Shown here one piece after another: positions 6,630 to 34,124 of a stretch of DNA of 34,124 nt. Within the stretch, counting starts at the first letter, position 1. The number at the start of each line of letters is the position of its first letter. Under the pieces are notes generated by a model, which saw only the letters and a program-made list of their open reading frames with translations, searched no databases and was not told the DNA's origin. Source of the DNA: a virus; the IMG/VR virus record IMGVR_UViG_3300045988_106174; one strand, 5' to 3'. The position numbers and the translations under genes are program-made.

Positions 6630-6647
6630 GCCGCTGCCTCCTTTCTG

Positions 6648-6673
6648 CAAATTTCCCAACGTTGGGAAATTTG
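6648..6673. repeat. Perfect 26-bp palindrome CAAATTTCCCAACGTTGGGAAATTTG, copy 1 of 3
   Basis: It is self-complementary with no spacer. It lies in the 48-bp gap between the stop at 6678 and the start at 6629. The other copies are at 19981-20006 and 25715-25742. Confidence 0.95.
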
Positions 6674-6677
6674 ACGC

Positions 6678-6914
6678 TTATGCCGGGTTGCCAATCTTGC
6701 AGATCACGACCACGCTGCCGCTGACGCGGGCGATGAGCACCCGGTCACCGGCAGCCAGCGTGACCGCTGTGTTGCACTTATAATGCTTTGCCGTCGCCGC
6801 CGTCTGACCGGGAAAGATCAGGCTGACGCCGTCGGCATACTTCGCGCCCACCGTCGCAAGCCCGATCTGCCCGGAGCTAGGCGCGGCTTTTGCTGCGCTG
6901 AAGAGGTCCATCAT
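6678..6914 (-). CDS. Small tail-tip/baseplate-region protein (78 aa)
   Basis: ORF track. It overlaps the upstream stop (ATGA) and has a beta-rich sequence. The family assignment is uncertain. Confidence 0.5.
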   Translation of the reverse strand: MMDLFSAAKAAPSSGQIGLATVGAKYADGVSLIFPGQTAATAKHYKCNTAVTLAAGDRVLIARVSGSVVVICKIGNPA

Positions 6915-17837: not shown

Positions 17838-19951
17838 TCGGCATCATCCTCTCTTGCTTTTTTGTCATACCAGCCAGCCGCCTTATTGCTGGCGGTGAGA
17901 TCTTCGAGATATGCGCACACGGCAAAAACAGAGGCGTCAAAAAGGTCGATGCGCAGATTCTGCTCGATCTTCTGATACATCACCATGTCGTCGGCTTTCT
18001 CAATACCGGCGACGTTCTGCACGCAGTACTCATACGGCTCGGCGTGCAGGTAGTAGAGTGTTCCCTTCTTCGCGCTGGCCTCCAAGTATCGGAAGCCCTC
18101 GGACTTCCGTGTGAAAAGCTGCGGCTGGTCTTTGATCGGGAAGCGCTCGTTTTTCATCTCCACGAAATACTCGCGGCAGAATTTTCGGTCGTGTCCGATC
18201 CGGCGGATCTTAAAGCCGGAGGCGCGCAGCTTTTTGTACCAGCACACCACGTCGTGATAGTTCGTGACGGCGTCGTTGGTCATATCCAGCCAGCCGTCCT
18301 CCTGCCAGCCGAATAGTGGGATCTGATCCTGCTGCGCCTTGATAACAGCCGCCGGGCGCGGAAACCACGCGTGCGGGATGACGATGTCCACGCCCTTGTA
18401 GTGCCCAAAAAGGCATCCAGCGGTCAGGTCGTGCAGCTTCGACAGGTCCGTGCCGCCGTACCAGCGGATCGGCAGCTTCGCGAGCTGCGCGATCGTCCAG
18501 TCGTATTTCTCATCGCTGCGGCGGAACTCCTGAATGTCGAACCACGCCTTGACGGCGTTCGTCGTAACGTTGAGGCTCTTATTCAAAAACTCCGGGCGGA
18601 GCGCGGGATTGTCCGCCGCCATGGCAGCGTCGTTGATCATGTCCTGCGGACGGATGGAATAGCCCCATCCGGGGGACGCCGCCTTCAGCACGGCAGGGTC
18701 GTGCAGGTCCACATCGCCGTTTTCCAGCGTCGGCGCGGAGCAGAGAAAGCAGAAGATCGAATCCGCCGCGTCGCCCGTGACCGTGCCGCGCAGGATTTTG
18801 CGGCAGTAGGCCAAATGCCCCAGCAGGAAGCCGCGTGCATTCGGACCGTTGGACGAGATGATAATGACGAGCTTATTCGTGTATGCCTTGGTCGCGTCCT
18901 TTAGGATCTGATACTGCTGCGGGCTTTTGTAGGTGTGCGCCTCGTCGGCGATGACGATGTTGCAGTTGAAGGAGTCCTGCTTGTCGGGGTTTGCCGCCAG
19001 AGCGTTGATGGAGATCATGCCGTCTCCGATGTCGCCGGAGATGGAGCACTCCATGTTGTTGTCGATGATGCGCAAGCCCTGATTCGGGTCGTCCTTCACC
19101 GTCACGCCGAGGCGGTTGAAGTTGTACTTGAGAAAGTCAAACCCTTCGAGTGCCTGCTTGAGCGCACCGCCGACCTCGTACACCTTCGAGCCGGACGCGC
19201 GCTCGTACATCGCCAGCGCGGCAGCGAGGGAGGCAGCGAACGTCGTTTTGACGTTTTTCCGCGGGATAAAATCAACGGCCTCCTTAAAGCGCCGGATTTT
19301 CGTGCCCGGCAGGTAGAAACCCATGATGTTGTAGACGATGAACTTGTGGTATGGCAGGAGCAGGAACGGCGTGCCGCGCAGCGGCGTCGCGTCCAGGAAC
19401 TCACCCTGCCGGTGACACATCATCGTCTCGATGATGGCAATGATGTCGTTCGCAGGCTCGGACCGAAATTCCCACTTGCCGCAGGCGAGATCTGCGACGT
19501 ATCGCTTGCAGGCAAGCACCGCGTCCTCGCATAGCCCGGACTCGCCGGACAGGACGGAGTTTACAAACGCGTCCACGTCGCGCTGGTACTGGGCAGCGTG
19601 CTCGATCGCATACTCGTGTGCACTCGCGAGGAGCTGCTCGATCTTGCTGTTTCCGGCTGCTGCTGGCTGGAGCTTGGAGCGCGCCTTGTTTAAGCCCGTC
19701 GGCGTCAAGCCGAGCTGATTGCGCAGCCCCTGCACCGTCGCGCGCAGGTCCTCGACCGCCGTCCAGTACGGGCTTTTCGCGGTGTACTCCGCGCCGGTCT
19801 TGTTGACCATCGTGCACACGCGCTGCCCGCCCTGCTTCTTCCACTCCTTTTCGGCGCGGGACAGCTCGCGCTCCGTCTTGGCAAGCTGTTTGATCGTCGG
19901 CTCAAAGATCGCGCCGTATGTGCCGACCAGCTCCATGTCCTTGCGGATCAT
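17834..19951 (-). CDS. Terminase: P27-type small-subunit domain fused in frame to a Terminase_1-type large subunit (705 aa from ATG 19951)
   Basis: The N-terminal ~115 aa (MIRKDMELVGTYG...GLRNQLGLTPTGLNKARSKL) look like a P27-family TerS. The rest (…VLACKRYVADLACGKWEFRSEP…LLPYHKFIVYNIMGFY…VIADEAHTYK…) is TerL. There is no stop codon or plausible internal start between them. The 83 upstream codons of the tracked ORF were rejected. Confidence 0.8.
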   Translation of the reverse strand: MIRKDMELVGTYGAIFEPTIKQLAKTERELSRAEKEWKKQGGQRVCTMVNKTGAEYTAKSPYWTAVEDLRATVQGLRNQLGLTPTGLNKARSKLQPAAAGNSKIEQLLASAHEYAIEHAAQYQRDVDAFVNSVLSGESGLCEDAVLACKRYVADLACGKWEFRSEPANDIIAIIETMMCHRQGEFLDATPLRGTPFLLLPYHKFIVYNIMGFYLPGTKIRRFKEAVDFIPRKNVKTTFAASLAAALAMYERASGSKVYEVGGALKQALEGFDFLKYNFNRLGVTVKDDPNQGLRIIDNNMECSISGDIGDGMISINALAANPDKQDSFNCNIVIADEAHTYKSPQQYQILKDATKAYTNKLVIIISSNGPNARGFLLGHLAYCRKILRGTVTGDAADSIFCFLCSAPTLENGDVDLHDPAVLKAASPGWGYSIRPQDMINDAAMAADNPALRPEFLNKSLNVTTNAVKAWFDIQEFRRSDEKYDWTIAQLAKLPIRWYGGTDLSKLHDLTAGCLFGHYKGVDIVIPHAWFPRPAAVIKAQQDQIPLFGWQEDGWLDMTNDAVTNYHDVVCWYKKLRASGFKIRRIGHDRKFCREYFVEMKNERFPIKDQPQLFTRKSEGFRYLEASAKKGTLYYLHAEPYEYCVQNVAGIEKADDMVMYQKIEQNLRIDLFDASVFAVCAYLEDLTASNKAAGWYDKKAREDDAD

Positions 19952-19980
19952 GTCCTCTCTCGCCAAACGATCACCTCGCT

Positions 19981-20006
19981 CAAATTTCCCAACGTTGGGC
20001 AATTTG
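19981..20006. repeat. Palindrome copy 2 (CAAATTTCCCAACGTTGGGcAATTTG, one mismatch at 20000)
   Basis: It matches copies 1 and 3 at 25 of 26 positions and lies 30 bp upstream of the terS start codon. Confidence 0.95.
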
Positions 20007-20314
20007 GCTTGCCCGGCGCTTTCGTGTTTCCGTCGAGGGCTCTGCCAGGCGCGGCTGTCTGCTACCGCGCCCAGTAGGAGGTCACTAACTATGGCGCGGC
20101 GGAAGCTGCCCGACTCCCGCCGCCCGGCACAGCCCTCGACGATCTCTCCGCAGGCGTGTCGCCTACGCCCTCGGTGCATCCCCGCAGGCGCGTCGATCAC
20201 GCCCGCGGTGTGTAATTCCTTGTCGCGCGCGGCCCGCGCGCCTTGCCGGTCTCGCGTTACCCCCTTCCCCGATTTTCCCGCAGTCGGAAAAGTGGGCCAA
20301 CCCCGGTGCTTTGG
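20007..20314. other. Non-coding GC-rich region between HNH and terminase: probable cos/packaging-recognition region
   Basis: I see no credible ORF here. There are two direct 14-mers CCGCAGGCG(T/C)GTCG (20148-20161 and 20182-20195), a related CCGCAGTCGG (20278-20287), and a 16-bp inverted repeat (20031-20046 with 20126-20141, 15/16). The HNH, cos, TerS order is typical of HNH-dependent cos phages. Confidence 0.35.
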
Positions 20315-20610: not shown

Positions 20611-20653
20611 AAAAACAAAAAGCGCCAAGACCTCTCAACGGAGATCCTGGCGC
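20611..20653 (-). terminator. Intrinsic terminator T2 (minus strand)
   Basis: The stem is GCGCCAGGA...UCUUGGCGC with an inner GAGA/UCUC helix. It is followed by UUUUUGUUUUUG, and the U-tract ends 2 nt before the HNH ATG. Confidence 0.55.
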
Positions 20654-20680
20654 TTATGCCATCCGGCTATCACCTCGGCT

Positions 20681-20973: not shown

Positions 20974-21693
20974 TTATATGTGTGAAGTTGTGATTTCCGG
21001 GATTTCAAAGTCAAACGTCGTGAACGTTCCGAAGGTGTTCTCAATGCGTTCTGGGAATTTTGCGCCCTCGAACGCGGTCGCGCCGCTCGGCGGCTGGTAG
21101 TGCTCGCCCGGCGCAAGCTCGATGTCGTTGCGCTCCGGCTGGATCAACCCCTTGCTCGGCGTCCACATCCGAGCGCCGACGCGTAGTTTGCCGGTCTTGC
21201 GCGGTTCTTTGGTCATGTATCGCGCGACCGCGCGATAGCCGCCGAACTCGCCGATCGTCTGTATATCGACGTAGCCCTTTTGCCACAGATCAGCGAAGAG
21301 CTGCCGCGTATCGCCTGGTGCACGTTTGGTGACGAAGTGGTGATGTACACGATGCTCGCCGTGCAAGCCTTCCATAACATAGACATAATCAAACGGCAGC
21401 CCCGCGGCTCTGCGATGCGCGCGCAGCTTGCGGAAGTACGCCGGTTGATTTTTCCGCGCCGCGTCAAATCCGGGCGGCAGATGCCAGTCGTCATAGGTGA
21501 GCGTCACAAACCAGTCCGTCAGCGCGAAGTTTGCATAGAGCAAAAACTCCAACCGCATACACGCGGTCTTGATGTTGACAGCCTCCTGCACGAGGCTTGT
21601 TTCAAATTGCCGCGCCGCTCGCGTGCACGGGCGAGCCGGCGCGGACGCCAGCTCGATTGCCCGCACGCGGTTGCCTGCGCGAAGTTCGATCAC
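20974..21693 (-). CDS. HUH-type rolling-circle replication initiator-like protein (239 aa)
   Basis: Three motifs occur in the canonical order: FVTLTYDD (motif 1), RVHHHFVT (HUH-like motif 2) and AVARYMTKEPRK (catalytic Tyr motif 3). Confidence 0.6.
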   Translation of the reverse strand: MIELRAGNRVRAIELASAPARPCTRAARQFETSLVQEAVNIKTACMRLEFLLYANFALTDWFVTLTYDDWHLPPGFDAARKNQPAYFRKLRAHRRAAGLPFDYVYVMEGLHGEHRVHHHFVTKRAPGDTRQLFADLWQKGYVDIQTIGEFGGYRAVARYMTKEPRKTGKLRVGARMWTPSKGLIQPERNDIELAPGEHYQPPSGATAFEGAKFPERIENTFGTFTTFDFEIPEITTSHI

Positions 21694-25016: not shown

Positions 25017-26045
25017 TCAGCCCTCCTTTTCCAGCGCTGCCGCCATTTTGGCGACTGCGTCCCGCGAGAAACGCAGGAGCTTGTCGGCTTTGTCGGCATC
25101 ACGGAGTTTGACTTTGGTGAGCAGGCCGCAAGCCTTGTTAAAATTCTCAAGCGTTGCCTGGAAAAAGCTCTGGAACACAGCGACGTCGGCATCCGACTGG
25201 ATACTGCTTTCCTTCTGCGCCTTGTTGGCATCTGTTCTGACCCGCTCCAACTCCTTCTGGAGAGCAGCGAGTTTCGCGTTCAGCGCATCCTCTTTGAGTT
25301 TTCCGCTGTTCACATCACTCATAGCCCTTGCGACTTCCGCCTGAAGCTCCACTTGCTTCTTCTCTGCCGCTTTTCGTAGGCGCTCGGCGGAGTCCAGCGC
25401 AGCCTTGTGCTTTTTCTCAGCGGCGGCGAGCGCCTCGGCGACGGCCTTTTCGATCTCTGCCGGGTCGGCTACCTGCACGGCAACTTCTACAGGGCGGTTT
25501 TCCAGCTCGCGGATCTGCTCCGCCTGCTTTTCCGTCCGCTCCGTGAGCTGCACTGCGGCGCTTTGCGCCTCTTCCAGCGCCTTGCGCGCCTCATCGCGCT
25601 CGCGGATCGCCTGCTCCAGCTCACGGGAGGACAGGTGCTCGGCGTCTACCGTCTGTGCAAACTCTTCGCGCTCATCCTCGGGCACTGCCAGCAGCCGCAA
25701 AGCATTGGAAACGCTCAAATTTCCCAACGTTGGGAAATTTGACGTTTTGCCGCCGTATTCCCGCGCGATCTGCATAAAACGGTTAGCCGACGAACTCGAA
25801 AACTCTGTTTCATTTTTCAAAAAATCAAGCCATCCGCCATGACCGACCATTTCCTTTGCCTCGGCGAGGCGCTTACCGATCTCCACGCCGAACCACACCG
25901 TCATGCTCTTCGCCTGCGCGGAGAGGTAGCGGATCTCGCTGCCGAGCGTCTCGGGCGAGCGCGGCACATCGACCGCCTGCCCCGGATGCACCTGCATATC
26001 CTTGCGGGTCTCGTCGGCAAAAATACTCGATACGTCAAATGCCAT
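25017..26045 (-). CDS. DUF3102-domain protein with a long C-terminal coiled coil (342 aa); candidate centromere-binding partner of ParA
   Basis: IGKRLAEAKEMVGHGGWLDFLKNETEFSSSSANRFMQIAREYG matches the DUF3102 signature. The gene begins 4 bp after the parA stop and contains palindrome copy 3. Confidence 0.7.
   Translation of the reverse strand: MAFDVSSIFADETRKDMQVHPGQAVDVPRSPETLGSEIRYLSAQAKSMTVWFGVEIGKRLAEAKEMVGHGGWLDFLKNETEFSSSSANRFMQIAREYGGKTSNFPTLGNLSVSNALRLLAVPEDEREEFAQTVDAEHLSSRELEQAIRERDEARKALEEAQSAAVQLTERTEKQAEQIRELENRPVEVAVQVADPAEIEKAVAEALAAAEKKHKAALDSAERLRKAAEKKQVELQAEVARAMSDVNSGKLKEDALNAKLAALQKELERVRTDANKAQKESSIQSDADVAVFQSFFQATLENFNKACGLLTKVKLRDADKADKLLRFSRDAVAKMAAALEKEG
25715..25742. 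repeat. Palindrome copy 3 (perfect 28-bp TCAAATTTCCCAACGTTGGGAAATTTGA), inside the DUF3102 gene
   Basis: It is self-complementary over 28 bp and encodes ...SNFPTLGNLS... in the DUF3102 frame. Confidence 0.95.
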
Positions 26046-26048
26046 TGC

Positions 26049-26849
26049 TTACGCCCCCTCTCTCAAAAGCTCATCCATCGTGACCGGCGGCGCAATGTAC
26101 TCCTGCACGAATGCGCGGTAGTCATATCCGGCAGCGCTGCGCGGGGAGTACAGTGCGATCGGCTTGCGCTCAAAGGTCATTTCATCCACCTTGTCGGTGC
26201 GGCGGATGACCGTCTGGAATACCGGCAGAATGTTGCAGCCGCGCAGGCTGCTCTCTGCCTGGAGCACGACCGGCGTGTTGCGCCACATCGTGATGAGTGC
26301 CCCGGCAATGCGAATGCTGCTGTTGATACGCTGAATGTTGTCGATTTGTCGCGCCACGTTGGCGAGCCCGCGCACGGAAAATGCGTCGAGCTTGATCGGG
26401 ATGATGACCTCATCCGCGGCAAGCAGCGCTGCGGCGCTTGCGGCGTTAAATGCCGGCGGGCAGTCGAAGATCACAAAGTCATACGCGTCATCCTCCCGGA
26501 TCGCCGTGCACAGATCTGCGAGGACGCGCCCGTGCACGCGGTTGTCAGCGATGTGCGACATATCGAGGTCCATCAGCTCATCCGATGCCGGGATCATGTC
26601 CAGCCCCGGGTAGTCCGTCGCGTACACGTTTTCGGGGTAGTACGGCTCGGCGTCACCGCGCAGGATGTCATCCAGCGTCGAGCCGTCCACGGAGCGCAGA
26701 CCGAAAAATTCGGTTGCATTGCACTGGCTGTCGCAGTCTACCAGTAGCACGCGCTGCTTATGGTCGGCGCACAGGATGTGCGCCATATTGACGGCGGTGA
26801 CGGTCTTGCCGACGCCGCCCTTCAGATTCAAGATTGCAATTGCTTTCAT
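26049..26849 (-). CDS. parA: ParA/Soj-type partition ATPase (266 aa, short type without an N-terminal HTH)
   Basis: It has the deviant Walker A MKAIAILNLKGGVGKTVTAVNMA and the motifs LLVDCDSQCN and FVIFDCPPA. AGGAGG lies upstream of the ATG. Confidence 0.9.
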   Translation of the reverse strand: MKAIAILNLKGGVGKTVTAVNMAHILCADHKQRVLLVDCDSQCNATEFFGLRSVDGSTLDDILRGDAEPYYPENVYATDYPGLDMIPASDELMDLDMSHIADNRVHGRVLADLCTAIREDDAYDFVIFDCPPAFNAASAAALLAADEVIIPIKLDAFSVRGLANVARQIDNIQRINSSIRIAGALITMWRNTPVVLQAESSLRGCNILPVFQTVIRRTDKVDEMTFERKPIALYSPRSAAGYDYRAFVQEYIAPPVTMDELLREGA

Positions 26850-26858
26850 AGCTTCCTC

Positions 26859-28208
26859 CTAGTTGTTTTTGAATACCTCTTCCGCTTCATGCCCGGGCAG
26901 CAGCTTGAAGCCCATCTGGTCAAGCTCTGGGTCGTGGGGTTTTTTGGGCGCGGGCGGCAATGCCTGGCTTTGCCGGAAGGTTTGTGTTACGCCGTCAAAT
27001 TCGAGCAGCACGGCGCGGTTTGCAATGCCGTCTTTGTTTTTTACAACGTTCAGCACACGCTTGGACTTTTCCGCCAGAGGGTCTTCGCGGAATAGCAGCA
27101 TGATCGCGTCCGCGTCCTGCTCGATCTGTCCCGAGGACCGAAGGTCCTGCATGGTCGGTGGCTTCGGGCGGGCGTTCCCTTTGCCTTTTTCGCGGCGGGA
27201 GAGCTGAGACAGCGCCACGATCGTCGCCCCGGTCTGCTTGGCGAGATTTTGCAGCAGCGACGAGATCGCGGTCACGCGGGCAAACTCGTTGTACGCGTCG
27301 CGCATTCCATCGGGTGCTGCGATCTTTTGCAAGTAGTCCACAAAAACCACCTCGTACCGCTTGGAGGCAGCGTATGCCCGGATGTCGCTCACCGTCATAC
27401 CGTTCGCCATGATGAGATCGAGCTTGGGCTTGATGATGTCCGTAGACATCGCCGCGACCGTGTCCCAGTCGTGCGCGCCCATCGCGTTGAGCTGCATCTT
27501 GGGCAGCCCGATCTGCGTCGTCATTGCCATCAGGCGATCAAAGAGCTTCGCGTCGTCGGTCTCATAGCTGAAAAATCCGACGCGCTTTTTCTGCGCCATA
27601 CGCTGCGCGAAGGTCAGCGCCAGCGTGGTCTTGCCGTCGGACGGATAGCCGCCGATGACGACAAAATCGCCGCCGTGGATGTTGAGCACGCCGTTGATGC
27701 CGCCAAAGCGCCAGTCTAAGAACTCCGGCTTGACCGTTTCGGCGTGACGGTCGTAAAATTCTTGGAGCGCCTGCTTCATGCCGACGCAGCGCACATCGGG
27801 ACGATCCACCAGCAGCTCGTTTGCTCGCTCAAGCGCCTTGCGGACGCTCTCCTCATCCTCGGCAAGGTTGATCTGCTCGCCGAGCGATCGCAGGGCGTAA
27901 AGCCGCGCGCGCTTTTTGAGCAGCTTGGCGTACTCGGCGTAGTTCGCCGCACTGGGTGTAACGGTCATGATCTGCGCCAGCAGGTCAGTCTGCTTGCCGC
28001 CGAGCCGGTCGTTGATCGTCACCGGGTCGATGTGCTCGCCTGTGTTGAACATCGAGCGGATCGCCTCGAATATCATGCGATAGGTCGGCTCGGTAAAATC
28101 GCTGGCGCGGACCGTCTGCAAGATCGGTCCGACTGTATCGGCGTCGATGACCATGCAGCCGAGGACGGCGGTCTGCGCATCCAACAGAAGATCGCGTGCA
28201 TTGCTCAT
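26859..28208 (-). CDS. dnaB: Replicative DNA helicase, DnaB family (449 aa)
   Basis: It has a DnaB N-terminal domain (AVLGCMVIDADTV...F..PTYRMIFEAI), the Walker A GGYPSDGKTTLAL, and C-terminal motifs (LSQLSRREK and QIEQDAD). Confidence 0.9.
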   Translation of the reverse strand: MSNARDLLLDAQTAVLGCMVIDADTVGPILQTVRASDFTEPTYRMIFEAIRSMFNTGEHIDPVTINDRLGGKQTDLLAQIMTVTPSAANYAEYAKLLKKRARLYALRSLGEQINLAEDEESVRKALERANELLVDRPDVRCVGMKQALQEFYDRHAETVKPEFLDWRFGGINGVLNIHGGDFVVIGGYPSDGKTTLALTFAQRMAQKKRVGFFSYETDDAKLFDRLMAMTTQIGLPKMQLNAMGAHDWDTVAAMSTDIIKPKLDLIMANGMTVSDIRAYAASKRYEVVFVDYLQKIAAPDGMRDAYNEFARVTAISSLLQNLAKQTGATIVALSQLSRREKGKGNARPKPPTMQDLRSSGQIEQDADAIMLLFREDPLAEKSKRVLNVVKNKDGIANRAVLLEFDGVTQTFRQSQALPPAPKKPHDPELDQMGFKLLPGHEAEEVFKNN

Positions 28209-29020
28209 ACGAACACCAGCCCTCCAAGATCGACTGCCGTGTCGCTCTCAGGCACTGCACTTGCTGCCGACCGGCGCAGGCGCTCCCGTGCCGCGGCGAC
28301 CTCGTCGCTCTTCGGCGGGTAGACGCTGGGGTAGCCCTTTTCCGCTGAGTACAGCAGGCAGCTCTCCGCCAGATACGGGTTAAAGCCCTCGCCGTCATCC
28401 GCGCAGGATGACAGCTTGCGGTAGAGCGTCTTTGCGGCAGTCAAAGACGGCATCGGATTGCCCGCCTCGTCGCGCGCATCCAGCATCAGCGTGAGTGCAG
28501 ACAAGACTTGCGGATACGCCGCAAAAACCTGCGCAAAATAGCTGTCGATCTGCGCGCGGTTTTCGCGCGCTTTTTCCTTTTCCTTTTCTTTTTTCTTTTT
28601 ATTATTTGACGACCGGGAAGTTTGTCCCTCTACCCCGGGATTTTTGTCCCCGTACGTACCGGGACATTTATCCACGTACGTACCGGGACATTCGTCCCCG
28701 TTGTCGTCAGGAACGGCTAGGTCTGGCGGCTTCGGCAAAGCCGGGAAAATATAGCGCCGCTTTCCGCCGATCTTGCGATCCGGCTCGATATGGACGGTAA
28801 TATGCCCCGCCTCAGCCAGGGCGGAGACCCAGCGTTTGATCACGTCCTCGGAGCAGTGCATCGCCTCGGCGAGCTGGGCGTTACGGGCGTAGCAGTAGCC
28901 TTTCCGCTTGGTCAGCGTGGAGATCACCCCATAGAGGATCTTCGCGTTGGCGGGGATGCTCATGTCCTCCAGTACCGTTGCTGGGATGACCGCCCAAAAC
29001 GCTCTAAAATCTTCGCTCAA
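28205..29020 (-). CDS. Replication initiator / organiser with an N-terminal winged-helix domain (271 aa from TTG 29020)
   Basis: FWAVIPATVLEDMSIPANAKILYGVISTLTKRKGYCYARNAQLAEAMHCSEDVIKRWVSALAEAGHI is typical of phage and plasmid replication HTH proteins. The stop overlaps the dnaB ATG (ATGA). TTG 29020 has GGGGGTGA upstream, whereas the tracked GTG at 29047 has no ribosome site. Confidence 0.6.
   Translation of the reverse strand: MSEDFRAFWAVIPATVLEDMSIPANAKILYGVISTLTKRKGYCYARNAQLAEAMHCSEDVIKRWVSALAEAGHITVHIEPDRKIGGKRRYIFPALPKPPDLAVPDDNGDECPGTYVDKCPGTYGDKNPGVEGQTSRSSNNKKKKEKEKEKARENRAQIDSYFAQVFAAYPQVLSALTLMLDARDEAGNPMPSLTAAKTLYRKLSSCADDGEGFNPYLAESCLLYSAEKGYPSVYPPKSDEVAAARERLRRSAASAVPESDTAVDLGGLVFV
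28570..28698. repeat. Candidate replication origin inside the initiator gene: a pyrimidine/AT-rich tract plus iterons
   Basis: A 39-nt T/C tract (28570-28608) is followed by an 18-bp direct repeat CGTACGTACCGGGACATT (28651-28668 and 28675-28692, 24-bp period). There are five GGGAC/GTCCC half-sites in both orientations. Confidence 0.45.
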
Positions 29021-29139
29021 AATCCATTCACCCCCTTGCCAAACCACCGAAGCGGTGATATAATAATGGTGCTTTCATAGCCGCCTTTCTGGCTGCTAGG
29101 AGATTCGCTCGGTTGTTCGCAGCAGCCGGGCGTTTCTTT

Positions 29140-32087: not shown

Positions 32088-32564
32088 TTGAAACCTCGAA
32101 TTTCAGAGCTTTGCAGAAAGAACAAAGATACGATGAATCCGCGCAGGACCAACGAGGATCTGGCAGAGCGCACAAACCTGAGCCTGAACACCGTGGCGGG
32201 CTTCCTGCGCGGCGAGGTCTCAAATCCGGGCGTCTATACCGCCGGACCGATCTGTCGTGAGACCGGCGTGTCGCTGGACGACTACTTCGACATCACCACG
32301 CCAAGCCGCGAGGCGAGCGAGGAAGCCCGGCAGCTCGCCTCGGAGGTAGCGCTGCTCAAGGCAAAGAATGAGGGCTTGCAGCACGAAAATGCGAATCTGC
32401 GCGTCTCGCTGCGGATGCACCGCTTCACGACCGGCGTGCTCCTTTGTATCGTTGCTGCGGCGGCGATCGCTCTGCTGGTCGACGTCCTCAACCCCGATGT
32501 CGGCTGGATTCGCCGCGCGCTGACGCGTACGCAGCAGGTACTACAGGGGGTGCAACATCTGTGA
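32088..32564 (+). CDS. Membrane-anchored XRE-type HTH protein (158 aa: HTH, coiled coil, TM helix)
   Basis: The TTG start has AAGGA 8 nt upstream. It has the HTH NEDLAERTNLSLNTVAGFLRGEVSNP, a heptad region (ASEVALLKAKNEGLQHENANLRVSL) and a TM helix (GVLLCIVAAAAIALLV). Its stop overlaps the integrase GTG (GTGA). Confidence 0.6.
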   Translation: MKPRISELCRKNKDTMNPRRTNEDLAERTNLSLNTVAGFLRGEVSNPGVYTAGPICRETGVSLDDYFDITTPSREASEEARQLASEVALLKAKNEGLQHENANLRVSLRMHRFTTGVLLCIVAAAAIALLVDVLNPDVGWIRRALTRTQQVLQGVQHL

Positions 32565-33601
32565 GCGCAAAGCCTAAAAATCGCGGCAATAGCACCGGCA
32601 GCGTCTACAAACTGCCCAACGGCACATGGTGCGCAGCCGTGACGCTGGGCTATGAGATCATGCCCGGCGGCGAGCAAAAGCGCCGCACCCGCAAAAAGGG
32701 CGGGTTTAAAACAAAACGCGAAGCGCAGGAGTATATCCCGCAGCTTCGCGTGACGCCGCCCGGCATCGACCCGGAGATCACCTTCCAGCAGCTCTATACG
32801 GAGTGGTTTAAGTTCCATTCGCAGCTTCGCAGCAAGGACACGATGAACTGCTATGCCGCCGCGTACAAGTACTACAAGCCCGTCTGGTGGTGCAAAATGC
32901 GCGACCTCAAGACCGCCGCGCTGCAAGCCTGTCTTGACGCGTGCCCGCGCGGCAGGCGTACGCAGGAGAATATGAAGGCCCTCGGGACAATGCTGTACCG
33001 CTACGCCATGCGTGACGACATTGTCACGCGTAACTACGCCGAGCTGCTGCGCGTCGGAGGCGGCAAACAAGCGCCACGCGAGCCGTTCACCGCCGACGAG
33101 CTGGAAAAGATGCGAAAGGCGGTTGGCACTGTGCCCAAGATCGAGCTGGTGCTCATCCTGTGCTATACCGGCTTCCGACTGGAGGAGTTCCTCCAGCTCC
33201 GCGACACCGATCTGCATTACGACGAGATTGTCAAGGGCTATTATTTTATCGGCGGCGAAAAGACGGAGGCCGGCATCAGCCGCATCGTCGCCGTCAGTCC
33301 GAAGATCCTGCCGTATGTGCAGAGCTGGCTCAAGCCCGGCTATATCTTTTCGGAGGACGGCAGCCGCAAGGTGCAGCAGAAGAAATTCCGCAACGAATGG
33401 TACTACCCTGCCCTGGACGCTGCGGGCGTCCGCAGGCTCGTGCCGCACTGCTGCCGTCATACCTTTGCAACGCTTATGAAGGAAGTGGACGCGCCAGACG
33501 CCGACAAAGCCGCCATGATCGGACACACCAAAATCGACATGACGTACAAATACACGCACACGGATGTCAAATCGTCGTCCAATATCGCGCAGAAAATATA
33601 A
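32561..33601 (+). CDS. int: Tyrosine integrase (346 aa from GTG 32561)
   Basis: It has an arm-binding-type N-terminus (GSVYKLPNGTWCAAVTLGY) and a catalytic region with ...GFRLEEFLQLR..., HCCRHTFAT, GHT and YKYTH (the R..HxxR..Y pattern). The upstream 39 codons of the tracked ORF overlap the preceding gene. Confidence 0.9.
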   Translation: MSAKPKNRGNSTGSVYKLPNGTWCAAVTLGYEIMPGGEQKRRTRKKGGFKTKREAQEYIPQLRVTPPGIDPEITFQQLYTEWFKFHSQLRSKDTMNCYAAAYKYYKPVWWCKMRDLKTAALQACLDACPRGRRTQENMKALGTMLYRYAMRDDIVTRNYAELLRVGGGKQAPREPFTADELEKMRKAVGTVPKIELVLILCYTGFRLEEFLQLRDTDLHYDEIVKGYYFIGGEKTEAGISRIVAVSPKILPYVQSWLKPGYIFSEDGSRKVQQKKFRNEWYYPALDAAGVRRLVPHCCRHTFATLMKEVDAPDADKAAMIGHTKIDMTYKYTHTDVKSSSNIAQKI

Positions 33602-33957: not shown

Positions 33958-34124
33958 TCATTTTTCCGCGATGCACCGATAATACGCCGCGATTTTCTTT
34001 TCCGTACCGCCGCCGTCGCGATCCATCAAAAACGCCTTTGCCATCTTTGCGTAATAGTCCGGGCGATCCACGCCGTACTCGCGCGCGACCGCGCAATAGT
34101 CCGAGTAGATCATATTCATCGCCG
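33958..34124 (-). CDS. C-terminal part of the wrap-around hypothetical gene (see 1-432); 34006-34124 duplicates 1-119
   Basis: The TGA is at 33960-33958. The frame is continuous with the minus-strand frame that leaves the window at position 1. Confidence 0.6.
   Translation of the reverse strand, partial: AMNMIYSDYCAVAREYGVDRPDYYAKMAKAFLMDRDGGGTEKKIAAYYRCIAEK
34006..34124. repeat. Terminal direct repeat, copy 2 (identical to 1-119)
   Basis: Exact 119/119 identity with the window start. Confidence 0.95.

Follow-up and report, generated by a model that had tools for sequence, protein, structure and literature searches.

ParT, encoded just after parA on the Streptomyces coelicolor plasmid SCP2, resembles ParB but has no CTPase domain (Sukhoverkov et al., PNAS 2025, PMC12260392). 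Its N-terminal peptide is flexible and is followed by a long, confident helix, a helix-turn-helix (HTH) domain, and a C-terminal dimerization domain. It loads at parS, an 18-bp inverted repeat experimentally mapped within the parT coding sequence. ParT diffuses along DNA without a nucleoside triphosphate, its N-terminus activates ParA, and its homologues have been reported mainly in Actinomycetota and Cyanobacteriota (PMC12260392). Among known systems, ParA–ParT–parS of SCP2 is the closest to the ParA-linked DUF3102 module considered here, which occupies positions 25,017 to 26,849 of the IMG/VR virus record IMGVR_UViG_3300045988_106174 (34,124 nucleotides, the whole of which is referred to as the window). 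On the basis of sequence, structure prediction, and analogy, we estimate with a probability of roughly 0.6 that DUF3102 is a CTPase-less ParB/ParT-like protein that binds a palindrome in its own gene and that, in this clade, serves as the partner of ParA. An initial annotation of the window had proposed that DUF3102 would define a new partner class for ParA. It does not, because a CTPase-less ParB-like partner with parS in its own gene had been shown experimentally for SCP2 ParT (PMC12260392). The features of the module are the following.

26049–26849, minus strand: ParA, 266 aa, a deviant Walker A ATPase with no N-terminal HTH (Pfam AAA_31, PHROG 164).

25017–26045, minus strand: DUF3102 protein, 342 aa, a predicted CTPase-less ParB/ParT-like site-specific DNA-binding protein (PF11300, AlphaFold2, Foldseek).

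25959–26045, minus strand: N-terminal peptide of DUF3102, residues 1–29, with the motif MAFDVSSIF, a candidate ParA-interacting segment (low pLDDT, motif distribution).

25755–25832, minus strand: HTH of DUF3102, residues 72–97, WLDFLKNE / SSSSANRFMQIARE, with a putative recognition helix (AlphaFold2, hhalign to the ParT HTH, hypervariability).

25023–25628, minus strand: C-terminal long helical/coiled-coil region of DUF3102, residues 140–341, a presumed dimerization module (AlphaFold2, PDB sequence matches).

25715–25742, no strand: intragenic perfect 28-bp palindrome TCAAATTTCCCAACGTTGGGAAATTTGA, coding for the loop SNFPTLGNL (residues 102–110), a predicted parS-like loading/binding site (shuffles, conservation).

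The DUF3102 protein matches PF11300 with 129.3 bits (cut-off 24.4, E 1.3e-37), residues 29–150 spanning the whole model. In the full-length AlphaFold2 model (pLDDT 77), residues 1–26 are disordered (pLDDT <50), residues 30–135 form a helical N-domain, and ~200 residues follow as long helices (140–182, 195–246, 252–283, and 286–341); the family match and these helices bear out the earlier description of a 342-aa DUF3102 protein with a long coiled-coil tail. A model of the N-domain alone, built with 58 diverse homologues, reaches a pLDDT of 87 and shows a 36-residue helix (31–66) followed by an HTH bundle. Its putative recognition helix comprises residues 84–97, the next helix spans residues 112–120, and the loop coded by the palindrome is the lower-confidence segment between them. 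Nearly all Foldseek matches of the N-domain in the PDB are ParB-family DNA-binding domains (probability 0.8–0.99, TM 0.5–0.65, E-values only 0.3–2), namely those of Myxococcus and Bacillus ParB, Thermus and Helicobacter Spo0J, the DNA-bound Noc domain, and SopB, and the full-length model gives the same picture. The prediction resembles the HTH or ParB-like fold for which the initial annotation had suggested looking. PDB sequence searches with the protein return coiled-coil proteins only, because the tail dominates the profile.

Like the canonical ParABS systems (Spo0J/ParB, Noc, and KorB), the module combines a predicted ParB-type HTH fold and a palindrome with a central CG with a ParA coded upstream, and one of the B. 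subtilis parS sites likewise lies within spo0J. DUF3102 differs from the canonical proteins in its C-terminal architecture and in lacking a ParB_N/CTPase domain: no PF02195 match is obtained in the protein at E up to 0.01, whereas the ParA partners in Flavonifractor phage Cormatin and Clostridium phage Saumur do match ParB_N. Because this domain is lacking, a CTP-gated clamp cannot operate in DUF3102. The protein also has no Pfam match to a ribbon-helix-helix (RHH) family; with 342 aa, an all-helical structure, and a DNA-binding part without a beta strand, it is unlike the small RHH fold of ParG and omega. The earlier statement that no ParB or RHH gene is present holds among the window open reading frames (ORFs) that were scanned or pre-annotated.

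The palindrome is a feature of the family rather than of one genome. The DUF3102 family comprises 4023 clusters at 50% identity. Among ~150 homologous genes from Oscillospiraceae and Streptococcus phages, a 22–30-bp palindrome stands at the same loop-coding position; the codons are likewise the same in 80 IMG/VR loci of related gut phages and in homologues of 25–99% identity. The survey of relatives that had been proposed thus recovers an intragenic palindrome at the same codons, at ParA-linked loci as well. In the INPHARED phage collection, a tblastn search with the full-length protein finds nothing and one with the N-domain alone gives two weak matches, the homologues there being reached only via a Streptococcus-type DUF3102 query. 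Four variants of the gut-phage palindrome and the peptides they encode are listed below.

AAATTTCCCAACGTTGGGAAATTT: gut-phage variant, peptide NFPTLGNL.

AAATTATTCAACGTTGAATAATTT: gut-phage variant, peptide NYSTLNNL.

AAATTATTCAGCGCTGAATAATTT: gut-phage variant, peptide NYSALNNL.

AAATTACCCAACGTTGGGTAATTT: gut-phage variant, peptide NYPTLGNL.

Between lineages, the arms vary by Watson–Crick compensatory substitutions on both sides (e.g., TTTCCC/GGGAAA, TTATTC/GAATAA, and TTACCC/GGGTAA, around centers of ACGT or GCGC), and these substitutions alter the encoded peptide. Judged from the sequences, the peptide is sacrificed to preserve DNA symmetry. DUF3102 genes of Streptococcus phages, which are ~25–30% identical and have no ParA, carry a 22–30-bp palindrome in the same place, in which the frame AAAT...ACGT...ATTT is constant and the symmetric inner arms take more than 12 forms; further variants occur in Oscillospiraceae, Desulfosporosinus, and other genomes. 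Over 48 distinct sites, each arm position shows 3–4 Watson–Crick pair types and almost no G·T, and 85% of positions are paired, as compared to 67% (maximum 71%) in 2000 shuffles, none of which (0/2000) reached the observed value. Such a pattern suits a duplex site read by a symmetric dimer and does not suit an RNA hairpin or a coding by-product.

An mRNA hairpin acting in processing, pausing, or translation control, or a mere by-product of a conserved peptide, is accordingly a very improbable account of the palindrome. In its favor, the transcript could fold into a 12–14-bp stem, and some members of the family share the conserved peptide xN[FY]PTLGNL. Yet the pairs are strictly Watson–Crick, G·U-type pairs amount to 0–4 of 48 per position, and the imperfect sites have C·A mismatches on the mRNA strand. 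Amino acids change so that symmetry is kept, the encoded segment is a low-confidence loop, and neither extragenic copy in the window, at 19980 or 6647, codes a SNFPTLGNL-type peptide within an annotated gene. Synonymous changes are missing or very few within the palindrome and frequent on either side of it: the entropy of synonymous codon choice is 0 in five of the eight tallied palindrome codons and 0.19–0.96 in the other three, as opposed to 1.3–1.9 at invariant flanking residues. Among sequences with the majority residue, single codons are used within the palindrome (Thr ACG 68/68, Pro CCA 41/41, and Asn AAT 70/70), whereas invariant residues a few codons outside it use 4–5 codons. In 100 dinucleotide-preserving shuffles, TCAAATTTCCCAACGTTGGGAAATTTGA has no match. 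As explanations of the palindrome, chance, RNA structure, and a replication origin (see below) are all unlikely.

The arm variants follow variants of the putative recognition helix, which is coded ~40 bp upstream of the palindrome. In the gut set, FS[KS]S[SG]A occurs with TTTCCC arms and FSQPxA with TTATTC arms, the latter in at least four separate backgrounds; in the Streptococcus set, there is nearly one palindrome per helix variant. Hypervariability of the protein is limited to helix 2, the turn, the recognition helix, and the palindrome-coded loop, and the flanks are nearly invariant. Such co-variation is what joint diversification of DNA-binding specificity would produce. It is not proof of binding, because helix and site are tightly linked. 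The initial annotation had cast DUF3102 as the centromere-binding adaptor of ParA. The first half of this proposal stands well, in that the predicted ParB-type HTH fold, the selection on nucleotides, and the helix/arm co-variation make it highly probable that the DUF3102 protein binds the palindrome; the second half does not extend to the whole family, in which partition is not the rule.

Some Streptococcus-phage DUF3102 genes (L141, L151–L153, L171, L178, L186, L187, and L194) keep the outer AAATT...AATTT frame but have lost the symmetry of the inner arms, as in CCAAATTTGGGAACGTACACAAATTTGG; these sites may be decaying or may be read asymmetrically. Palindromes of the same type, AAATT[TA]CCCAACGTTGGG[AT]AATTT, are also seen outside DUF3102 genes in IMG/VR (L091 at 5930, L103 at 2334, L093 at 7907, L095 at 1329, L099 at 1481, and L115–L117). 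These orphans are located between HNH/terS, primase/HNH, PGDYG/Fic, and integrase/cI genes, and the contig parts examined contain no DUF3102 gene. In the window palindrome, the half-sites ATTTCCC/GGGAAAT (25719–25738) are identical to those of the B. subtilis Noc-binding site ATTTCCCGGGAAAT, here with an extra AACGTT between them. The identity may be a coincidence or may reflect a shared recognition of half-sites by ParB-type proteins.

Several salient similarities connect ParT and DUF3102. In both, the partner gene is tightly coupled behind parA, with a 4-nt overlap in SCP2 and a 3-nt gap in the window. Neither protein has a CTPase domain, and both show a disordered N-terminal peptide, a long helix, a ParB-like HTH, and a C-terminal dimerization region, as predicted for DUF3102 by AlphaFold2. 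Both genes carry a spacerless inverted repeat with a CCAA..TTGG core inside their own coding sequence, at codons 143–149 for ParT parS and codons 102–110 for the DUF3102 palindrome, and in hhalign the two positions stand opposite each other, right behind the recognition helix. This alignment of family against family superimposes the HTHs and places ParT SPIGDI opposite DUF3102 PTLGNL (E 0.0022, probability 13%, 50 columns). Either protein has some homologues with ParA and others without it, and the N-terminus sets the ParA-linked ones apart.

The two systems also differ, and the similarity of their sequences is not significant. DUF3102 has a coiled coil of ~200 residues in place of the linker and small C-domain of ParT, its N-terminal motif is AFDVSxIF and not the basic SRR, its site measures 24–28 bp rather than 18 bp, and it is found in Firmicutes phages, whereas ParT is found on plasmids of Actinomycetota or Cyanobacteriota. 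The DUF3102 profile does not match the single ParT sequence, ParT matches no Pfam family, PF11300 included, and neither does a cyanobacterial ParT-like protein from the list in the ParT paper. The supplementary lists of that paper hold no DUF3102, phage, or Firmicutes entries, and the literature search turned up no publication that connects DUF3102 with ParT or with DNA binding.

ParA of the window has its Walker A motif NLKGGVGKT at residues 8–16 and no N-terminal extension, in agreement with the earlier description of a short Walker-type protein with KGGVGKT near residue 10 and without an N-terminal HTH. Its deviant Walker A with the signature lysine, its length within ~200–300 aa, and the missing N-terminal HTH are those of small type Ib-like ParA/Soj proteins. 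It matches AAA_31 (7.9e-40), CbiA (6e-20), and PHROG 164, ‘ParA-like partition protein’ (1e-57), and scores 78.7 bits against NCBIfam NF041546 (ParA_partition), under the equivalog cut-off of 180. By its sequence, it is thus a member of the ParA family and not a named equivalog, and no informative name was found in NCBIfam. The nearest homologues in cultured phages are those of Cormatin (47% identity) and Saumur (36%), in both of which a ParB_N protein is encoded right after ParA, i.e., in the slot of DUF3102. The gene order in Cormatin, initiator–DnaB–ParA–X, is that of the window, X being the ParB_N protein.

DUF3102 starts 3 nt past the ParA stop codon in the window, so that the close succession of the two genes was correctly noted but the gap is not 4 nt. 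Across the family, ParA stands directly upstream of DUF3102 only in a clade of at least 63% identity (22/22 IMG/VR loci plus L217 and L218) and in an independent lineage, L244, of 35% identity. All ParA-linked homologues, L244 included, have in common the motif [AP]FD[VI][SA]x[IV][FL] on a disordered N-terminal extension of 20–30 residues; ParA-less DUF3102 proteins are without it, even one of 59% identity (P0083). A motif specific to ParA-linked members is what the suggested search for a ParA-stimulating N-terminal peptide has yielded. Perfect 24-mer cores are present in all 24 ParA-linked loci (22 from IMG/VR, L218, and L244), the exception being L217 with one mismatch, and many ParA-less loci have 2–4 arm mismatches. 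Together with this motif and these cores, the ParB_N protein that occupies the slot of DUF3102 in syntenic modules ties DUF3102 functionally to ParA, as far as sequence can tell, where both co-occur. That the DUF3102 protein activates ParA has, in our judgment, slightly better than an even chance; true plasmid-type segregation by the pair is less probable than that.

Most DUF3102 genes have no ParA nearby, and partition therefore cannot be the general function of the family; the distribution of ParA suggests that it is a clade-specific use of DUF3102. In temperate phages of Streptococcus, Staphylococcus, and Bacillus, the DUF3102 gene follows cro and precedes an antirepressor, and in a gut clade of 40% identity it usually adjoins a PcfJ gene (before or after) instead of ParA. 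PcfJ-domain (PF14284) genes recur near both ParA-less and ParA-linked DUF3102 (L025 5202–6881, L123 2451–3983, L133/L134 11422–13233, and L263 7412–9238), and on a Cytobacillus plasmid the PcfJ gene adjoins an AcrIIA9-family gene. PcfJ and DUF3102 may be functionally linked.

Beyond the intragenic palindrome, the window harbors two further copies.

19980–20007, no strand: second copy, 26/28 matches, 28 nt upstream of the terminase-ORF ATG at 19951 (minus strand), kept in relatives.

6647–6674, no strand: third copy, 27/28 matches, filling a 46-nt gap in the tail module, kept in contig 071693.

On the circular contig, their distances from the genic palindrome are 5.7 kb and ~14.9 kb. The initial annotation is right in placing two copies ~5.7 and ~15 kb away from a perfect intragenic palindrome, with the addition that the copies carry two mismatches (19980) and one (6647). 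The ORF opened by the ATG at 19951 encodes a terS-like N-terminal part, and the copy before it lies ~640 nt downstream of the terminator of the early operon, a strong intrinsic terminator at 20620–20655 on the minus strand with a 15-bp stem and a T-run; no gene was called in these ~640 nt. The third copy is situated between two minus-strand genes of the tail module (6678–6914 and one with its ATG at 6631), just ahead of the ribosome-binding site AAAGGAGG. A cos or pac site was rejected for the terminase-proximal copy, as three copies per genome, one of them in an early gene, would be incompatible with unit-length packaging.

The copy at 19980 stands at the same place in L081 (96% identity), contig 071693 (89%), and L217 (87%), and overall the extragenic copies recur in relatives 87–96% identical, with two to three sites per relative. 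Outside this subclade, no further copies of each genome's own palindrome were detected within ±10 kb at ~200 related loci, exact-pattern scans of IMG/VR for two palindrome variants agree in finding none, and a single site is present in the 65%-identity ParA-linked clade and all other homologues examined. Thus, the proposal that three palindromes form a dispersed centromere holds insofar as the three sites exist and are kept in relatives of 87–96% identity, but the conserved feature is the single intragenic site. Because extra copies are confined to relatives of at least 87% identity, a generally dispersed centromere was rejected. In our reading, the two extra sites are a recent elaboration and may add late-gene control.

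Dispersed copies of one palindrome, one of them beside the start of the late genes, are reminiscent of N15 SopAB and RK2 KorB. In N15, late expression is influenced by Sop sites that neighbor late-gene control elements, and both KorB and N15 SopB act in partition as well as in regulation. The module differs from these systems in that dispersal is limited to a narrow subclade, most relatives having one intragenic site, that DUF3102 is without the ParB N-domain, and that the phage encodes an integrase.

The location of the copies bears on the foremost alternative, namely that DUF3102 is mainly a transcription regulator, with the intragenic palindrome serving as an autoregulatory roadblock, the extra sites as operators, one where the late operon begins and the other within the tail operon, and the adjacency of ParA being incidental or secondary. 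The position between cro and antirepressor in ParA-less temperate phages agrees with such a role, as do the extra sites 28 nt from the terminase start codon and directly before the ribosome-binding site of the tail module, the terminator that ends the early operon upstream, and the orphan copies between HNH/terS and integrase/cI genes in other phages. On the other hand, no sigma-70-like promoter overlaps the palindrome sites, and regulation alone leaves unexplained why DUF3102 follows ParA so closely (3-nt gap), why ParA-linked members have an N-terminal peptide of their own, and why ParB_N proteins of syntenic modules are replaced by DUF3102. We regard this alternative as unlikely, though well ahead of the others. 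It is also compatible with DUF3102 being a ParA partner that binds its own palindrome, in the way that KorB and N15 SopB do both.

A further alternative emerges from the early operon on the minus strand, which runs from an HTH_36 initiator through DnaB and ParA to DUF3102 and is closed by the terminator described above.

28205–29047, minus strand: replication initiator HTH_36, directly upstream and in the same operon as ParA–DUF3102.

26859–28208, minus strand: DnaB helicase, directly upstream and in the same operon as ParA–DUF3102.

Phage replication origins often lie inside replication genes, and the intragenic palindrome could in this setting be part of an origin, bound by the initiator or by DUF3102 as an origin-organizing protein. 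Such a role is quite improbable, since the window has three copies, two of them in late-gene regions, and the site, one spacerless palindrome, shows none of the iterons that origins typically have. The DUF3102 gene of Streptococcus phages, moreover, belongs to the lysogeny/early-regulation region, with the annotated replication genes ~2 kb downstream of it, and the arm variants follow the HTH of the same gene, not the initiator.

What we infer of physical binding, stimulation of ParA, and biological output is as follows. A dimer of DUF3102 would recognize the 28-bp palindrome of its own gene, in the segment that codes the loop just after the recognition helix, and in this phage would also recognize the two nearly identical copies, one before the terminase gene and one in the tail operon. 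Once bound to DNA, DUF3102 would present the AFDVSxIF peptide of its N-terminus to the ParA ATPase translated along with it. The resulting ParA/ParB-like/parS module would position or segregate phage genomes, either as an excised or replicating circle or possibly in a plasmid-like state. The sites close to late genes may additionally give DUF3102 a regulatory role, as for KorB or N15 SopB.

Several observations weigh against this proposal. The sequence similarity between DUF3102 and ParT is marginal (hhalign probability 13%), the Foldseek E-values for the N-domain are weak (0.3–2), and the N-terminal peptide is not basic, unlike SRR of ParT. The helix and the palindrome are only ~40 bp apart, so their association could reflect linkage or recombination blocks and not co-adaptation. 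DUF3102 genes of Staphylococcus and B. thuringiensis are without any palindrome, that of a Cytobacillus plasmid has a weak 16-mer only, with a CAATTG center, and the two extra sites of the window are limited to a narrow subclade. ParA is lacking near most DUF3102 genes, among them those of the 40%-identity gut clade and of phages of Streptococcus, Staphylococcus, and Bacillus. Lastly, the phages with ParA–DUF3102 encode integrases and one of them resides in a chromosome, so a segregation role is not obviously needed.

The window is a circular k=119 assembly of ~34,005 bp with 58% G+C and an identical 119-bp direct repeat at 1–119 and 34006–34124; the ENA contig ERZ27229742:k119_276846 is the same sequence. 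By its gene content (terminase, portal-side, major capsid, and tail genes together with an integrase and cI/cro-like HTH genes), it is the genome of a temperate tailed phage. The hosts of these phages are Oscillospiraceae and other Clostridia, and the genomes come from gut metagenomes.

32561–33601, plus strand: tyrosine integrase (PF00589 at 3.8e-15, plus Arm-DNA-bind_4).

The integrase named in the initial annotation is thus in place. ARAGORN finds no tRNA gene within the window, and because of this the ‘tRNA-type attP’ stays unverified. In a ParA–DUF3102 relative of 62% identity (L134, 1–3443), the element is integrated via a large serine recombinase beside cotJA/cotJB and a Mn-catalase fragment in a 148-kb contig and may be a prophage that interrupts a sporulation gene. 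Of the dual lifestyle that had been proposed, the plasmid side is therefore conjecture, given the integrase of the phage and this relative in a chromosomal contig. Between the early genes and the terminase gene, a protein of the rolling-circle Rep type, REP_ORF2-G2P (PF23343), is encoded at 20974–21693 on the minus strand, and its gene is conserved in the relatives L081, L085, and L133 of this tailed phage.

A looser parallel is offered by the Leptospira plasmid-prophage LE1, in which ParA is likewise followed by a small protein with a sub-threshold DUF3102 match (parA–orf4–rep). LE1 replicates as a plasmid, and its parA–orf4–rep region supports stable maintenance. The 140-aa product of orf4 (L216 388–1541 region) scores 20.6 bits against the DUF3102 cut-off of 24.4 (E 5.6e-4) and shows a weak structural match to the N-domain model of the window protein. 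No palindrome was found in or near orf4, and given this and the sub-threshold match, orf4 was dropped as an experimental precedent for DUF3102. LE1 also has a separate ParB_N protein 1.2 kb beyond orf4.

Taken as a whole, the DUF3102 proteins might tentatively be viewed as a phage family of nucleotide-independent ParB/ParT-like clamps, each loading at a private, fast-diversifying palindrome of its own gene. Each gene would then be a self-contained specificity cassette that marks its own DNA, with the use set by the partner (ParA, PcfJ, or antirepressor): genome positioning, early/late control, or incompatibility with and exclusion of co-infecting phages. If this is true, competition among related phages would lie behind the diversifying selection on helix and site. 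The pairs of helix and palindrome variants provide a natural specificity series for dissecting how ParB-type HTH domains read DNA, and the module raises the question of what role a ParA/ParB-like system has in phages that also integrate. If the proposed function is true, DUF3102, which is common in phages of gut Clostridia and in the genetically tractable dairy phages of Streptococcus thermophilus, would gain a testable molecular function. CTP-independent ParB-like systems, known since 2025 from one Streptomyces plasmid and thought to belong mostly to Actinomycetota, would then extend to the phages of Firmicutes.

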